The position numbers and the translations under genes are program-made. Below the pieces are notes generated by a model. It saw only the letters and a program-made list of their open reading frames with translations. It searched no databases and was not told where the DNA came from. This document shows positions 7,204-43,817 of a DNA stretch of 64,000 nt, one piece after another (within the stretch, counting starts at the first letter, position 1; every line of letters starts with the position of its first letter). Origin of the DNA: Chloroflexota bacterium. Its GTDB lineage: Bacteria > Chloroflexota > UBA11872 > VXOZ01. The stretch is taken from NCBI GenBank assembly GCA_965216245.1, contig OZ244145.1, positions 2,317,284 to 2,381,283 on the forward strand, read 5' to 3'.

Positions 7204-7413
7204 CTAGTGGCGGAATACGGTATGCGCCAGTAAGACGGTTCCAGTATACCATGCGGTGCAGGCGTACTGGGAGTGCGTATAGAATGAAACGACAGAGTGC
7301 GAAGGAAGTGACCGGTGGCGCTTGTTTGCGTTGATTGCGCACCTGCCGCATTGTTCGTACTCAAGCGTTGGTTGTGGCGCGGGATATGGATTATCAATAG
7401 AGGAGCGGTGTAT

Positions 7414-8409
7414 ATGGATATGGTGAACATCGGCATTGCGGGTACGGGAGGCATAGCGCAATCGCACGCGAGGGGGTTGGCATCTGTTCCCCAGGCGCGG
7501 ATCGTGGCTGCGGCGGACGTGAATGAAGCAGCCGTGCACGCGTTTGCGGCTGCGCATGACGTGGCGCACGTCGACACTGACTACCGCGCCGTTCTGGACA
7601 ACCCGGCGGTAGATGCGGTCATCATCTGTCTGCCCCATGCGCTGCACGGTGAAGTCGCGATCGCTGCGGCGCAGGCCGGCAAGCACGTGCTCTCCGAGAA
7701 GCCGCTGGGCGTATCCGTAGTCGAGTGCAGCGCCATCATCGCCGCCTGCGAAGAGGCCCAGGTGAACCTCATGGTCGGTCACACCCACCGCTTCATGTTG
7801 GAGCACCTGCGGGCGCTGGAGTTGCTACGCGAGGGGGCGATCGGCGATGTGCTCCATATTCACGACTCCATCACTGGCGCTACCCGCCATAAGGACCTGG
7901 GCTGGCGCGGGGTACGCGCGCTGGCCGGCGGCGGTGTGTTTATGGACAACGGCGTACATAGCGCGGACCGGCTGCGCTGGTGGATTGGGTCGGAGGTTAC
8001 GGCTATCACCGCCAACATCGGCCACTACGGCGCGCGCACCGAGGGGGAGGATTTCGGTGTGGCTCACCTCGAATTTGCCAACGGCGCGAGCGCGACGATG
8101 GAAATCTCGTTGATTGCGGCTCCTACAATGGGACGCTGCCGCGCCGAGGTGACGGGTTCAAACGGCGCGATGGAGATCGCGACGTGGCGGCATCTCAAGG
8201 TAGCGAGTGCGGATGACCAGGAGTGGGAAACACTGACGTTCCCACGAGATCGCAGCCAGTTCGTGCGGGAGGACGGCGAGTTCGTGGCGAGCATCTTGGA
8301 ACAACGCGCGCCGCTCGTCACCGGCGAGGACGGCAAACGGGCCGTGGCCATCGTGCAAGGCATCTATCAAGCGGCAGAGAGCGGCGAGCGGGTGCTCTTG
8401 CACGGATAA
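7414..8409 (+). CDS. Gfo/Idh/MocA family oxidoreductase
   Basis: GIAGTGGIA Rossmann motif, KHVLSEKP, DNGVH. AGGAG RBS before ATG 7414. Confidence 0.93.
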   Translation: MDMVNIGIAGTGGIAQSHARGLASVPQARIVAAADVNEAAVHAFAAAHDVAHVDTDYRAVLDNPAVDAVIICLPHALHGEVAIAAAQAGKHVLSEKPLGVSVVECSAIIAACEEAQVNLMVGHTHRFMLEHLRALELLREGAIGDVLHIHDSITGATRHKDLGWRGVRALAGGGVFMDNGVHSADRLRWWIGSEVTAITANIGHYGARTEGEDFGVAHLEFANGASATMEISLIAAPTMGRCRAEVTGSNGAMEIATWRHLKVASADDQEWETLTFPRDRSQFVREDGEFVASILEQRAPLVTGEDGKRAVAIVQGIYQAAESGERVLLHG

Positions 8410-8565
8410 TCCAAGTAAACAAAACTCTACATTCGTCAGGACAAGCTTGGTCGGCTACGGGAGGGCCGACCTCGGAGGGCCGTCATTCCTGTAAGTGTTG
8501 ACTAATTCGTTGACAGATTTCGCTGTTTGATTCCCTTGCCAAGATCTAGAGTACCCCCGTCTCCG

Positions 8566-9576
8566 TCATTCCCGCGAAAGCGGGAAGGTGGATTCACATT
8601 TCAAGTGCAACGTTTGTTTGAGGAATACTTCTGCTGGGGTTTGATAGTCAAGGCACTTGCGCGGGGTGTGATTGTAGGCTTGGATAAGTTGCGCAAAGCG
8701 CTCTGCGGACATCTCCGCCAGGTCGGTCTTGCGCGGCAGCACGCGCCGCATGCGTCCGATGGCGTTCTCAATGCCTCCTTTCTGCCAGGGGGCGTGGGTA
8801 TCGCAGAAGAAGGTCTGGATGCCCAAGTCATGGAGATGGTAATGGCGCGCGAACTCGGTGCCGTTGTCGAAGGTGACGGTCTGTCGCCACGCTTCAGGCA
8901 AGACCGCGAGCAGATCGTACATGGTGCTGGCGATGGGGTCTGCCGCCTTGCCGGGCTGGCGCGCAGCGATGAGCAAGCGCGAGTGGCGCTCGTGCAGGGC
9001 GAGCACCGCGTGGCCGCCTCTCCCAAAGAGCATCAGGTCAGCCTCCCAGTGGCCGGGGGTTTGGCGGTCGGCCGCCGCCTGGGGACGTTCCGCCAGTGGA
9101 CGGCGCTTGGCAATGAAGGAGGCCGGACTGCGCCCACTGCGCCGATGGGGTCGCCGTCTCGTCTTGCCTCGCGGCAGGTAGTGCCGCCAACTATAGTCCT
9201 TGGTGCGCGCCACCTGTCCGTATATGAAACGATAGATGGTCTCGTGGGAGATGACCGGTCCACCGGCATCCCGCGCCATGTGTCCTGCCACCTGCTCCGG
9301 CGACCAGCCGCATTGCAAGTACTCCAGCACGGTCTTGCGCAACGCAGCATCCCGTTCCAACTTGCCGCCAACCCAGCGCCGCGCCCACGCCTGTTCGTGG
9401 GCATACCCCGCTTGGTAGCCCTGCGTACGAGACCCATTGCGTTTCACCTCCCGCATAATGGTCGATGGCGCGCGATCCAGAGCTGCAGCAATTTGCCGGT
9501 ACGACTGTCCCGCGGTGTGAAGCCGGGCCAGTTCACACCGCTCTTCAATGGAAAGTTGACGATAGTATGTTCCCAT
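8566..9576 (-). CDS. IS30 family transposase
   Basis: N-terminal HTH (IAAALDRAPSTIMREVKRN), WSPEQ, ISHETIYR. DDE motifs GHWEAD, TFDNGTEF, WQKGGIEN. Confidence 0.97.
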   Translation of the reverse strand: MGTYYRQLSIEERCELARLHTAGQSYRQIAAALDRAPSTIMREVKRNGSRTQGYQAGYAHEQAWARRWVGGKLERDAALRKTVLEYLQCGWSPEQVAGHMARDAGGPVISHETIYRFIYGQVARTKDYSWRHYLPRGKTRRRPHRRSGRSPASFIAKRRPLAERPQAAADRQTPGHWEADLMLFGRGGHAVLALHERHSRLLIAARQPGKAADPIASTMYDLLAVLPEAWRQTVTFDNGTEFARHYHLHDLGIQTFFCDTHAPWQKGGIENAIGRMRRVLPRKTDLAEMSAERFAQLIQAYNHTPRKCLDYQTPAEVFLKQTLHLKCESTFPLSRE

Positions 9577-9620
9577 GGCAACACCTTAGCATGGTGTTGC
9601 ACTTCGTTTGTGAGTCTAGC
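8587..9620 (-). mobile_element. IS30 family insertion sequence
   Basis: Imperfect 25-bp IRs GGTGGATTCACATTTCAAGTGCAAC and GCTAGACTCACAAACGAAGTGCAAC. GAA duplication at 8584-8586 and 9621-9623. Confidence 0.9.
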
Positions 9621-9926
9621 GAATCCATCTTCTCTGCGTGCCCTGGACTCCGGCGGAAGCCGGAGTGACGACCCTAAGGGCGAATTCTTCCCTCGTAAAT
9701 GGCCAGTGCCGTCTAACACATTCGTACCTATACGCCTCCCTGTTGGCCTTCTCTGCCCATTCTAGTGCCAATTCTGTCAACGAATTACCTGACACATACA
9801 ATTCCAGCGCAAGCCGGAATCCATCTTCGTGTAGGGTAGAGACCTGCTCCGCCCAGTGCGCAAGGATGGCTATACCTAGGAGTGAGGATTTAACAGCCAG
9901 GGCAATTGACAGCGCTGTGATAGCGG

Positions 9927-11330
9927 TCACCGTTTCGCCAGCATCTGCGCCACGGCGCACGTGTCGCAGCGCTTCTCGCGGCACCAGGTATGGTAAACGT
10001 GGAGCAGCCCCTGCTGGCGCGCGGCAGTCATGGGCACGAATTTTGGCGGCAAGCCGAATACGCCGTCGCGCATGCTCCGGATGAGGCGGTTCGAGCTGGC
10101 GGCCGGCGCATGACGCAACGTGGTGACGGCCCAGTCGGATACGGCGGAGTCGCCGGTGTGCTCGCCAAGAGCGAACATAAACGGCAGCAAGACGTTCGTG
10201 AGCACTTCGCGGGCGCGCTCCGTCCCGATCAGGCTCTGGGCCGCGCCGCGCAACGGCACCCCAAAGTCACAATGAGTGGCCCAATAGCGTGAGCAAGACG
10301 CCGGAAGCGCGAACGCACTGACCATCTGTTGGAGTAGCTGAGTCTGATCCGATTCTTCGCGGAGCGCTAGGCAGAATTGTACCGGACCGGTCTCCGCAAG
10401 CCGCGCGCAGAGGTGTCCTGCCGCTGCCACGCGCCGCGCCGGGGCGTTCGTGGGGCGCACGCCGCCGCGCACCCAGGCTGTGGCCGGCAGCGCCGATTCC
10501 AATTGGTAGTTCTCCCACAGGCTTTCAAGCTCCTGCAAATGCGCATGGTCGGCGGCGGTAGGGGCACGGCATGCCGTGCCCGTGCGCGGGGAAGTGTCGC
10601 GTTGGGAGGGCAGCAGCCCCGCCGCGCCGAGAAACAGCGCCTCGCCGCGCAGAGCCGCATCGGCCTTAACGTTCAGAATCGCCTCAACTACCGGCCACGG
10701 CAAGCCCGCACTGAGCTGGCGGAACGGCTCGCGGTTTTGGCTGTAGCCAAGGGCATCGAGCAGGGCTGCATAGAGCGCTTGCTCCGGCCCAATTTGTTCG
10801 ATGGCGGCCAACATCTGCGCCGCTTTCTTGCGCATGCGGCGTTCGCCCAACGTTGCGAAGAGCATACCGACGGTCATGGCGTCGGACTTGGTGTGGAGGT
10901 CGGAACAAGGCTGAAACGACGGGAGTCGTTGCGCCACATACTGCTCCGGCATACCGTCAGGAAAGCACGGCGACAGCGCCAGCGTGCGCAGCGGTCCGCC
11001 GCCAATCAACCCGTCGTCTTCCCACACCACGTGGAGCATGACGTGGTGGTAGGCCGGATCGGAGGCGTGGCCGTGGGCGCGCCAAGCGGAGGCGGCAGAA
11101 TGTACTTCTATGTGACCGTAGCGCAGCCGCCGGCCGTCCAGCGCGATGATCGCGTCGAGGAAGTCTGGCCCGGGACCCAGGTTGCGCCGTCCTGGATAGA
11201 CAACTTGAATCTGCTCGCCAGCCGTGGTGCGCAGGAGTGTTGCACCCCAGGGACACGCCTGCCAGAGCTGCACAACATCTTCTTCACTATGGGTTTCAGT
11301 TGGGGCAAGCGTAGGAGCGGCGGTGCTCAT
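9927..11330 (-). CDS. DUF2851 family protein
   Basis: VVYPGRRN.GPGPDFLDA, GHIEVH, W.AHGH..DPAY..V.LHVV, VRP.N.P.RR and a C-terminal CxxxxCxxC. Confidence 0.85.
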   Translation of the reverse strand: MSTAAPTLAPTETHSEEDVVQLWQACPWGATLLRTTAGEQIQVVYPGRRNLGPGPDFLDAIIALDGRRLRYGHIEVHSAASAWRAHGHASDPAYHHVMLHVVWEDDGLIGGGPLRTLALSPCFPDGMPEQYVAQRLPSFQPCSDLHTKSDAMTVGMLFATLGERRMRKKAAQMLAAIEQIGPEQALYAALLDALGYSQNREPFRQLSAGLPWPVVEAILNVKADAALRGEALFLGAAGLLPSQRDTSPRTGTACRAPTAADHAHLQELESLWENYQLESALPATAWVRGGVRPTNAPARRVAAAGHLCARLAETGPVQFCLALREESDQTQLLQQMVSAFALPASCSRYWATHCDFGVPLRGAAQSLIGTERAREVLTNVLLPFMFALGEHTGDSAVSDWAVTTLRHAPAASSNRLIRSMRDGVFGLPPKFVPMTAARQQGLLHVYHTWCREKRCDTCAVAQMLAKR

Positions 11331-42965: not shown

Positions 42966-43143
42966 TTGATGGACGCACTCTTTACTGCGGGCGAAGACGC
43001 CTCACTCCCAACCAGGGGACGCAGGTCCTTGACTATCTTTCCACATTATATGTTGCTCCGTATGCGCCCTGCAACCAGGGCAGGTGTTTTATGGCGAGTC
43101 GGCCACCTGGTTACAAAGGTTAAGTGCTGCACTCTGTCATTCC

Positions 43144-43385
43144 TGTAAGTGTCAGGCAATTCGTTGACAGATCTTCAATAAAGAGAAGATAAGCGACGCG
43201 TCGTGCATGCCTTGTACACATGTCATTCCGAACGGAGCGCAGCGCAGAGAGGAATCTAGAGTGCTGAGCCTATTGGACTTGTTGCAACATGGACTCCAGA
43301 TTCCTCTCTTCGCTCGGAATGACATAATCGGTCAACACTGCCTGGTGGAAAGCGAATTCTGTCAACGAATTACTCAACACTTACA
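43144..43385. mobile_element. Non-autonomous TGT...ACA element (MITE, copy 2, 242 bp)
   Basis: Same terminal IRs as 8490-9800 in the opposite orientation. ATTCC duplication at 43139-43143 and 43386-43390. Internal class B REP pair at 43222-43324. Confidence 0.88.
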
Positions 43386-43817
43386 ATTCCGAACGAAGCG
43401 AGGAATCTAGAGTTGCCAAGCGAAAAGCGCAACGCCTGATCAGGTAATTTCTAACTCCCGTAGACTGTTTGCGACGAAAGGTGATAGGCGCTGTGGCGCT
43501 TGTACTGCCCGCGTTCATGCTTGCTTGTGAGGCAGGCGCAATCGAGAGTGCCATGCGGGGTAGTAGCGAGGTGGTGAAGGCTCTCTTGGGGCTAGCTCTT
43601 CGTGGGAGTGATGGAAAGCGGGAGCGCGCTAAAGCCGCGCCATCCAGAGCGGGGGACAAGCCCCCGCGCTACGAGGATTATCGCTCTTCAGTTCACTGCG
43701 ACGGTGGCAGCCACTGCGATAAACACAGTAAAGCAGATTCTAGGTTGTGCGCCCTAGATTCCTCGCTGTGCCTGCAATGACTAGAGACGTCAACTAATTC
43801 AAAACGACCGAATCGCG

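Follow-up and report, generated by a model that had tools for sequence, protein, structure and literature searches.

An IS481-like miniature element and an IS30-family insertion sequence nested at two fixed positions of one intergenic hairpin repeat family in a Chloroflexota genome

Reports of insertion sequences (ISs) homing to palindromic repeats in intergenic DNA go back to the 1990s and 2000s. Both IS30 of Escherichia coli and IS1655 of Neisseria meningitidis prefer palindromic hot spots and their own inverted repeats. IS870 of Agrobacterium vitis is reported to depend on a CTAG target for the completion of the stop codon that closes its open reading frame (ORF). Here, we describe a nested locus in a stretch of 64,000 nucleotides (nt), referred to as the window, from the genome of a Chloroflexota bacterium (GCA_965216245.1, contig OZ244145.1; genome G000 in the following). 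The locus consists of an IS30-family IS that lies in a repeat carried by a miniature inverted-repeat transposable element (MITE), which itself splits a chromosomal hairpin repeat between two convergent genes, encoding an oxidoreductase (plus strand) and a DUF2851 protein (minus strand). The window is part of a single contig of 3.695 Mb with 58% G+C. In our assessment, this nest was very probably built by two successive site-specific transpositions into one hairpin family. The principle of ISs homing to intergenic palindromic repeats is already known and the locus is a further case, cleanly resolved. What it adds is an unusually complete natural record, together with two transposase families that each have a fixed position of their own in one and the same hairpin.

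Targeting of repeats is established in the IS3, IS110, IS4, IS5 and IS256 families (Tobes and Pareja 2006, PMC1525189). ISs reported there to target repetitive extragenic palindromic (REP) sequences include ISPsy8 (IS3), ISPa11, ISPpu9, ISPpu10 and ISRm19 (IS110) and ISRm22 (IS4), IS1397 is named in the title of a supplement, and IS1655, which is repeat-associated in 2/13 and 2/6 copies, appears as the sole IS30-family entry. The present case resembles the 'type 1 association' of that survey, in which (nearly) every copy occupies one fixed position and the repeats act as transposition hot spots: the share of copies at one repeat position is 21/22 for the IS30 element and 28/31 for the MITE, that is nearly but not strictly 100%. 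However, none of the type 1 cases in the cited part of the survey belongs to IS30 or IS481, and the locus described here further differs in that two families use two positions of one SRM/NTS-type hairpin and in that one of the elements is a MITE carrying the target. A hairpin of the same class (ATTCCC-N8-GGGAAT), the dRS3 repeat of Neisseria, is likewise a landing site for a mobile element, the filamentous prophage Nf1/MDA (PMC3898611). In that case, the integrating element is a prophage with its own integrase and not a duplication-making DDE insertion sequence. The repeat itself is similar to that of the NTS/SRM-Ssn system (Chenal et al. 2025, PMC11893778) with respect to the consensus, the SRM pattern and the presence of small GIY-YIG genes between inverted repeats, and the main text of that report makes no mention of IS30, MITEs, Chloroflexota or Nitrospirota. 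A full-text literature search that left most subscription journals and ISfinder outside its scope returned no REP-, NTS- or SRM-specific IS30 or IS481 elements; within the same limits as to journals, it returned no MITE carrying its own target and no transposons in SRM repeats. The locus ties transposon targeting to the recently described Ssn/SRM repeats.

The original prediction, made from the sequence alone, held that removal of the IS30 element with its GAA duplication restores a repeat, that an inverted partner repeat follows, and that the pair resides in an element of ~274 base pairs (bp) with 28-bp inverted repeats and an ATTCC duplication, whose removal restores a second repeat. Each of these statements is borne out by the positions collected in Table 1. 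Excision of the IS together with one GAA yields CCGTCATTCCCGCGAAAGCGGGAATCCATCTTC, a string that occurs intact seven more times in the genome with 0 mismatches, and excision of the MITE together with one ATTCC yields CCGTCATTCCAGCGCAAGCCGGAATCCATCTTC. Both strings belong to one hairpin family with a 7-nt stem and a 4-nt loop, which is flanked asymmetrically by CCGTCA on the 5' side and by TCCATCTTC on the 3' side. The inverted repeats of the MITE extend over 34 nt (8490–8523 and 9767–9800; 79%) with 28-nt cores at 8490–8517 and 9773–9800, and its own 274 bp are non-coding, the ORFs present being spurious read-throughs only. As the sequence following the IS30 insertion is an inverted variant of the repeat, the cargo of the MITE represents a tail-to-tail doublet. 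Among Logan contigs from public runs, X9 and X10 hold exact contigs bridging the flank to the MITE at both ends. Neither an IS30-empty contig, in which 8586 is joined to 9624, nor a junction of abutted IS30 ends was reported from these contigs, which cannot show absence and whose summed depths are not copy numbers.

Members of the IS30 family transpose via a circle or tandem in which the inverted repeats abut. They measure about 1–1.25 kb, carry a single transposase ORF and terminal inverted repeats of 20–30 bp, and generate duplications of 2–3 bp. In size and structure, the window element fits with 1034 bp, one ORF of 336 amino acids (aa), 21-nt inverted-repeat arms (8591–8611 and 9596–9616, 76% complementary in a repeat scan) and a 3-bp duplication. 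Its transposase matches the NCBIfam model NF033563 (transpos_IS30) with 235.9 bits (cut-off 80; E 6.5e-70) and the Pfam domain HTH_38 with 62.3 bits, and there is a weak rve match of 21.6 bits that stays below the cut-off. Match to the family model, size, single ORF, imperfect inverted repeats of ~25 bp, 3-bp duplication and palindromic target are features shared with the studied members of the family. BLAST detects 22 full-length copies in the genome; 16 of them, the window copy counted, are 100% identical to the window copy, which indicates recent activity. No fewer than 21 of the 22 copies reside at the same nucleotide of the repeat, all 21 in one orientation, and 21/22 display a perfect 3-bp duplication. 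With the flanks oriented on the IS, the site reads ...CGTCATTCCCGCnnnnGCGG-GAA / IS / GAA-TCCATC...; one of the 21 repeat-borne copies sits in a CACTCC...GGAG variant with a GAG duplication. Thus, unlike what is described for IS30 and IS1655, the target is a defined genomic repeat family that is entered at one nucleotide and in one orientation.

A fuzzy search with both inverted repeats of the MITE revealed 75 ends, which correspond to 31 paired elements of 242–319 bp, three of them about 1.3 kb long through an IS30 element held inside, and 13 solo ends. The box GTCATTCC adjoins 28/31 MITEs exactly at the junction with at most one mismatch, as compared to 238/200,000 random sites. It is found in forward orientation in 12 and in reverse orientation in 17 cases, with one element counted in both. 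The IS30 element and the MITE therefore share the hairpin but use two different fixed positions: the MITE cut falls in the 5' arm and occurs in either orientation, whereas the IS30 cut falls at the end of the 3' arm and occurs in one orientation only. A search with a 33-mer, allowing up to seven mismatches, gave 157 places, of which 12 are IS30 junctions, leaving 145 intact repeat copies or about 0.13% of the genome. Since the repeats make up so little of the genome, yet hold 21/22 IS30 copies and 28/31 MITEs, the association is far beyond chance, and the random flanks that the original prediction had named as a refuting outcome were not encountered. Its claim that two unrelated mobile elements target one REP family stands in so far as the repeat is the same and the transposase families, IS30 and IS481-like, are different; 'unrelated' is too strong, because both transposases are of the DDE (rve) type.

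Natural alleles of the locus were retrieved from 30 relatives, which were searched with positions 7300–11300 of the window, followed by extraction of the intergenic part. In G002, G003, G006 and G007, the intergenic region comprises about 200 bp with one intact repeat, reading ...CCGTCATTCCGGCGGAAGCCGGAATCCATCTTC... in G003. The closest relative, G004, is 92–95% identical in the flanks and has the same MITE with the same ATTCC duplication, while the cargo repeat is intact with a single GAA and IS30 is absent. Hence, empty sites can be reconstructed in silico, as had been anticipated, and also exist in nature, both for the MITE and for the IS. At the same place, G015 carries a relative of the IS30 element (81% identical) directly in the chromosomal repeat with no MITE, and in G008 this repeat contains another MITE, distinct from that of the window but with inverted repeats of the same family. 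One orthologous site is thereby seen in five states across sister species: without insertion, with the MITE alone, with both MITE and IS30, with IS30 alone and with another MITE. Judging from these alleles, the repeat would have come first in the window lineage, the MITE would have arrived before the split from G004 and IS30 after it. The late arrival of IS30 agrees with the 16 identical copies in the genome.

The IS30 transposase ORF has no stop codon of its own and terminates on a TGA inside the repeat. Past the edge of the IS, which the frame leaves after ...GAA TCC ACC, 18 nt are read through the repeat hairpin (TTC CCG CTT TCG CGG GAA) before the TGA provided by the GTCA box of the repeat is reached; this stop codon corresponds to the TCA at 8566–8568, being its minus-strand complement. 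As reported for IS870, the transposase frame is closed by a target-dependent stop. The element is of a different family than IS870, however, and its frame has to traverse 18 nt of the target hairpin to reach the stop. A further difference to IS30 and IS1655 is that no stop is present inside the element and the TGA of the target is used. To see how general these features are, we inspected 80 loci with IS30 relatives of 67–97% amino-acid identity from 31 assemblies, titled Chloroflexota or Dehalococcoidia metagenome-assembled genomes (MAGs) plus four Nitrospirales MAGs; the transposase gave the orientation of these loci, which are not independent of each other, and the IS tips, being nearly invariant, served for their alignment. 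A 7-4-7 hairpin with at least six of seven pairs starts directly after the IS tip in 59/80 loci, a 3-bp duplication is present in 68/80, and an in-frame stop is found exactly at the seventh flank codon in 62/80. The hairpins vary by genome (for example TTCCCGC, TTCCGGC, TACCGGC, TGCCCGC, TTCCTGC, TCCTCGC, CCCCGGC) and the geometry is constant. IS30 relatives in other phyla show the same hairpin targeting and, unlike IS30 and IS1655, this clade follows host-specific hairpin variants in Chloroflexota and Nitrospirales assemblies. Through the borrowed stop, the form of the transposase is tied to the choice of target in a simple way that lends itself to testing, and a compact IS30-family transposase with single-nucleotide, orientation-specific target choice is a candidate for a site-specific insertion tool. 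As a separate observation, the IS30 copy at 3230444–3231477, outside the window, has TCAT at the usual distance from the IS tip, and its frame stops at the seventh flank codon.

The repeat is best filed as an NTS/SRM-type hairpin, a motif linked to Ssn GIY-YIG nucleases, and not as a RAYT-type REP. The classification is based on the fit of the motif, on GIY-YIG genes that are flanked by repeats and on Y1 matches that are not. The repeat consensus agrees at 27/28 positions with the published NTS consensus CGTCATTCCCGCGMAVGCGGGAATCYRG, and the degenerate SRM pattern of the same report (PMC11893778) has 143 matches in G000 as compared to 28 in the reversed genome and about 10 after extrapolation from a 1.5-Mb first-order Markov control. 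Covariation is seen between positions 11 and 20 of the stem (C 105 / G 46 versus G 107 / C 48). A strict hairpin detector allowing loops of 3–29 nt is non-specific (1644 matches versus 1869 in the reversed genome), and the loop-4 class alone stands out with 229 versus about 65. Of seven GIY-YIG matches examined in G000, three small ones exhibit the NTS-gene-NTS layout: repeats lie at -152 and +48 of the gene at 1478230 and at -131 and +179 of the one at 2095426; for the third gene, at 1203472, one repeat lies at -85, and the repeat on the opposite side, which is inverted, is split by an IS30 copy. This last unit (1203387–1204866, outside the window) is an Ssn-type unit struck by the same IS30 insertion sequence. 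The protein encoded at 1203472 comprises 95 aa with a single PF01541 domain and belongs to a very large family of 95-aa GIY-YIG proteins according to a homologue search; no NCBIfam model matched it, and a PDB search gave nothing useful, the sole match being a chain titled WD-40 repeat protein. A RAYT/REPIN interpretation was dropped, as the genome contains two Y1_Tnp matches, neither of which has a repeat inside its locus of ~3.2 kb. The label 'REP' of the original prediction consequently needs qualification, the family being of the NTS/SRM type of the Ssn system.

The autonomous parent of the MITE came to light in a sister genome. In G000, a longer element with MITE ends was not found, and a pair of inverted repeats 1973 bp apart (2421666–2423638) was rejected as a parent, since it encloses an ordinary Gfo/Idh/MocA-like gene and no transposase. 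A pattern search located the MITE inverted repeat in 16/17 genomes of the genus, G000 included. In G005, perfect inverted-repeat pairs 1061 bp apart delimit an element of 1060–1061 bp with one transposase of 333 aa (copies L013 and L014). Its ends read TGTAAG...CTTACA, the transposase stop lies inside the right inverted repeat, and the left inverted repeat of the window MITE is identical to that of the G005 element at 28/28 positions. Typical IS481-family members are about 1 kb long and have a single ORF free of frameshifts, TGT...ACA ends and short duplications of the target. The parent element conforms with about 1 kb, one ORF, TGT...ACA ends and a 5-bp duplication; its transposase matches Pfam rve_3 with 73.9 bits and rve with 42.4 bits, and among family models NF033577 (transpos_IS481) ranks first by a wide margin, though below its cut-off, followed by IS3 with 81.7 bits. 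The parent protein is present in 6/16 sister genomes, with 11 matches in G005, 15 in G001, five in G003 and one each in G015, G008 and G010, the G010 copy having two internal stops. When seven full-length copies of the parent were viewed, five were seen to lie at this same box with a perfect 5-bp duplication (ATTCC, GGAAT or AGAAT), one was offset by one base and one had GGAAT on one side and ATTCC on the other. With the G005 query, the parent transposase was not found in G000 and G004; as G000 lacks a cognate transposase, its MITEs are most likely orphans. In the copy L013 (G005:C1:158574-160034), GGAAT on the left and ATTCC on the right each derive from a different repeat. We read this copy as a recombinant, since such a pattern is expected after recombination or inversion between two copies.

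At least one repeat is carried by 17/31 MITEs, the number per MITE ranging from 0 to 2. IS30 copies in MITE-borne repeats amount to three, namely the window copy and those of the nests at 2806410 and 1542841; in the latter, the IS30 copy at 1543012 sits in the inverted cargo variant with a GAG duplication. Moreover, in a nest outside the window, at 1338487–1339073, one MITE is inserted in another, the inner MITE (1338727–1338990) being bordered by a GGAAT duplication in the repeat of the outer one. The types of nest seen are thus MITE in repeat, IS30 in MITE and MITE in MITE. MITE-borne repeats account for 13 of the 145 intact repeats (9%), and 3 of the 21 repeat-borne IS30 copies (14%) are MITE-borne. 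These similar shares mean that cargo repeats are struck about as often as their share predicts. That one of the elements carries fresh target sites, as proposed originally, is therefore true as a description, with three MITEs holding IS30 and one holding another MITE; to regard the cargo as an adaptation or as a major spreading route for the repeat would go beyond these counts.

Both duplications, the empty sites in silico and in nature, the fixed positions, the orientation of IS30 and the autonomous partner of the MITE are direct observations, and the following course of events would account for them. A hairpin repeat between the convergent genes would initially have taken up the 274-bp non-autonomous MITE, mobilized by an IS481-like transposase that cut between GTC and ATTCC in the 5' arm of the hairpin and duplicated ATTCC, before the split from G004. 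After this split, a recently active IS30-family element would have entered the first cargo repeat of the MITE's doublet where the 3' arm ends in GAA, in the one orientation that lets its open-ended frame cross the hairpin and stop at the TGA of the GTCA box. Each transposase would recognize the repeat itself, i.e. the asymmetric GTCA and TCC flanks together with the 7-4-7 hairpin, probably through N-terminal helix-turn-helix (HTH) domains. Use of the asymmetric flanks is probable because a symmetric stem cannot set orientation. Being intergenic, the repeats may offer harmless landing sites that let the elements reach high copy numbers. The left tip of IS30, GGTGGATTC, resembles the reverse complement of the repeat tail, GATGGATTC, and one DNA-binding surface may read both. 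At the locus itself, the left duplication plus IS tip at 8584–8595 (GAAGGTGGATTC) is the inverted complement of the repeat tail at 9621–9632 (GAATCCATCTTC) at 11/12 nt, and owing to this complementarity both junctions of every repeat-borne IS30 copy can pair. Targeting of inverted repeats in the manner of IS30 and IS1655 was considered and dropped: the insertion falls 6–9 bp inside the tip look-alike and not at the tip. The insertions may also affect the repeat as a nuclease substrate. According to mutagenesis in PMC11893778, the C after the palindrome is most crucial for binding of Ssn, and cleavage depends most on the three bases in front of the palindrome. Insertion of IS30 removes this C, and insertion of the MITE replaces those three bases; both insertions would therefore probably disable the repeat as an Ssn site.

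Several observations weigh against this scenario or limit it. A perfect 5-bp duplication is kept in only 15/31 MITEs and 3/31 lack the box; likewise, only 11/31 reconstituted MITE sites passed a strict hairpin test requiring the 7-nt stem, which is in part explained by the fact that many targets are a longer variant of the repeat. The IS30 copy at 3230444 (CTC duplication) lies in no recognizable repeat, and 21/80 of the related IS30 loci, which come from 31 assemblies and are non-independent, have no clear hairpin. With 206 bits, the parent transposase falls short of the 224-bit cut-off of the IS481 model, and the MITEs of G000 are probably immobile in the absence of a cognate transposase. 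Finally, HTH recognition, the benefit of a 'safe haven' and any function of the borrowed stop are inferred, and transposition itself was not observed.

How the nest could have arisen otherwise deserves consideration. If the repeat halves belonged to the mobile elements, the association would be built in and targeting would not be needed. The 12-nt inverted pair just described, which is 92% complementary and stems from the likeness between IS30 tip and repeat tail, might be taken in this sense; however, at the orthologous empty sites one repeat is present and intact, with GAA or ATTCC occurring just once, and the flanking half-repeats vary in loop and stem and co-vary with the repeat of the host genome across the 31 assemblies, whereas the IS ends are constant. 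We consider this explanation highly improbable. Hardly more credit can be given to random insertion followed by selection that purged all copies outside of harmless intergenic repeats. Insertions into intergenic repeats should indeed be nearly neutral, and IS30 copies are distributed over the chromosome with the same skew as MITEs and repeats, but selection cannot yield nucleotide-exact positions, one orientation (21/21) and constant duplications, nor the same geometry in 59/80 relatives with differing host repeats. Besides, intergenic DNA outside of the repeats is far more abundant, yet at most 1/22 IS30 copies is found there.

Two further explanations concern what moved. The MITE with its IS30 might have travelled as one composite, with the nest at 2806410–2807720 being its copy: both composites measure 1311 bp and have the IS at the same place in the MITE. 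This is very improbable, as the two ISs show 100% identity along their 1034 bp, whereas identity drops to 93.8% and 97.8% in the MITE arms and the cargo loops are not the same (GAAA versus GCAC), which argues for an independent event at 2806410. In addition, G004 has the MITE of the window without the IS, the third nest (1542841) has its IS in the other cargo repeat, and G000 lacks a transposase able to move the MITE. Somewhat better placed, though still improbable, is the idea that mobility lies with the hairpin repeats, which an Ssn- or RAYT-type enzyme would spread into or next to transposons. The mechanism by which SRMs spread is unknown, the authors of PMC11893778 liken the NTS-ssnA-NTS layout to an insertion sequence, and the varying repeat number (0 to 2) suggests that repeats may enter MITEs secondarily. 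In conflict with this idea, the duplications of 3 bp and 5 bp are of transposon type and recombine into one repeat, the orthologous sites had the repeat before MITE or IS arrived, and no RAYT gene is flanked by these repeats. Mobile repeats could still explain how cargo repeats entered MITEs. Two successive site-specific transpositions thus remain our preferred explanation for the nest. A wider interpretation, in which SRM/NTS hairpins constitute a shared landing-pad economy with a dependent IS30 clade and with MITEs that consume and re-seed sites, appears rather doubtful to us. It is prompted by the loss of the transposase's own stop, the fixed distance of the GTCA box and the tracking of host-specific variants in two phyla. 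If true, the IS30 clade would read the same asymmetric features as the Ssn nuclease, and transposon cargo would be a real route for the spread of SRMs within a genome and for deeper nests.

Table 1. Positions of the nest, its parts and neighbouring features in the window
Feature	Position	Strand	Remarks
Upstream flanking gene, Gfo/Idh/MocA-type oxidoreductase	7315..8409	+	Pfam GFO_IDH_MocA 92.7 bits plus C-terminal domains; nest just past 3' end
Chromosomal hairpin repeat, 5' part (CCGTCATTCC)	8480..8489	+	Last 5 nt, ATTCC (8485–8489), are the left MITE target duplication
MITE, IS481-like family	8490..9800	+	274 bp of own sequence plus 1037 bp from IS30 insertion; TGT...ACA ends
Cargo repeat 1, 5' part (CCGTCATTCCCGCGAAAGCGGGAA)	8563..8586	+	GAA 8584–8586 is the left IS30 target duplication
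IS30-family insertion sequence, 1034 bp	8587..9620	-	Imperfect terminal inverted repeats 8587–8611 / 9596–9620
IS30 transposase gene, 336 aa	8566..9576	-	ORF; frame exits IS at 8587 and stops in repeat
Cargo repeat 1, 3' tail (GAATCCATCTTC)	9621..9632	+	GAA 9621–9623 is the right IS30 target duplication
Cargo repeat 2, inverted variant (CGTCACTCCGGCTTCCGCCGGAGTCCAG on minus strand)	9643..9670	-	Tail-to-tail doublet with cargo repeat 1
Chromosomal hairpin repeat, 3' part (ATTCCAGCGCAAGCCGGAATCCATCTTC)	9801..9828	+	ATTCC 9801–9805 is the right MITE target duplication
Downstream flanking gene, DUF2851	9927..11330	-	Pfam DUF2851 199.4 bits
Second MITE, same family, 242 bp	43144..43385	-	ATTCC duplication 43139–43143 / 43386–43390

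The window harbours a second MITE of the same family (Table 1). Its target is a longer variant of the repeat (TGTCATTCCGAACGAAGCGAGGAATCTAGAG), the site reading TGTCATTCC up to the insertion and GAACGAAGCGAGGAATCTAGAG beyond it, and its cargo consists of two inverted copies of this target variant. On the scale of the chromosome, the region from ~0.75 to 2.75 Mb, which surrounds the cumulative GC-skew minimum (1.60 Mb), is where repeats, IS30 copies and MITEs accumulate; near the maximum (3.59 Mb), they are rare.

A tblastn search of G000 with the G005 transposase retrieved only one group of elements, family A, which is IS481-like and has 11 copies with 28% identity. Family A shares the TGT...ACA ends and the 5-bp duplication with the MITE. 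A role as mobilizer of the MITE is not supported, as only 14/27 inverted-repeat positions match in a hand alignment and the target repeat is different. Family A elements (689671–690935 and 10 further copies, outside the window) are 1265 bp long with TGTACAGAC...TATACA ends and a 5-bp duplication, and encode a transposase of 377 aa with rve and LZ_Tnp_IS481 domains. In at least four of eight copies viewed, the insertion site is the loop of another palindrome, CCCTCTCCC-N-GGGAGAGGG followed by TTAGGGTGAGGGG. Family A would represent a third repeat-targeting element in one genome.

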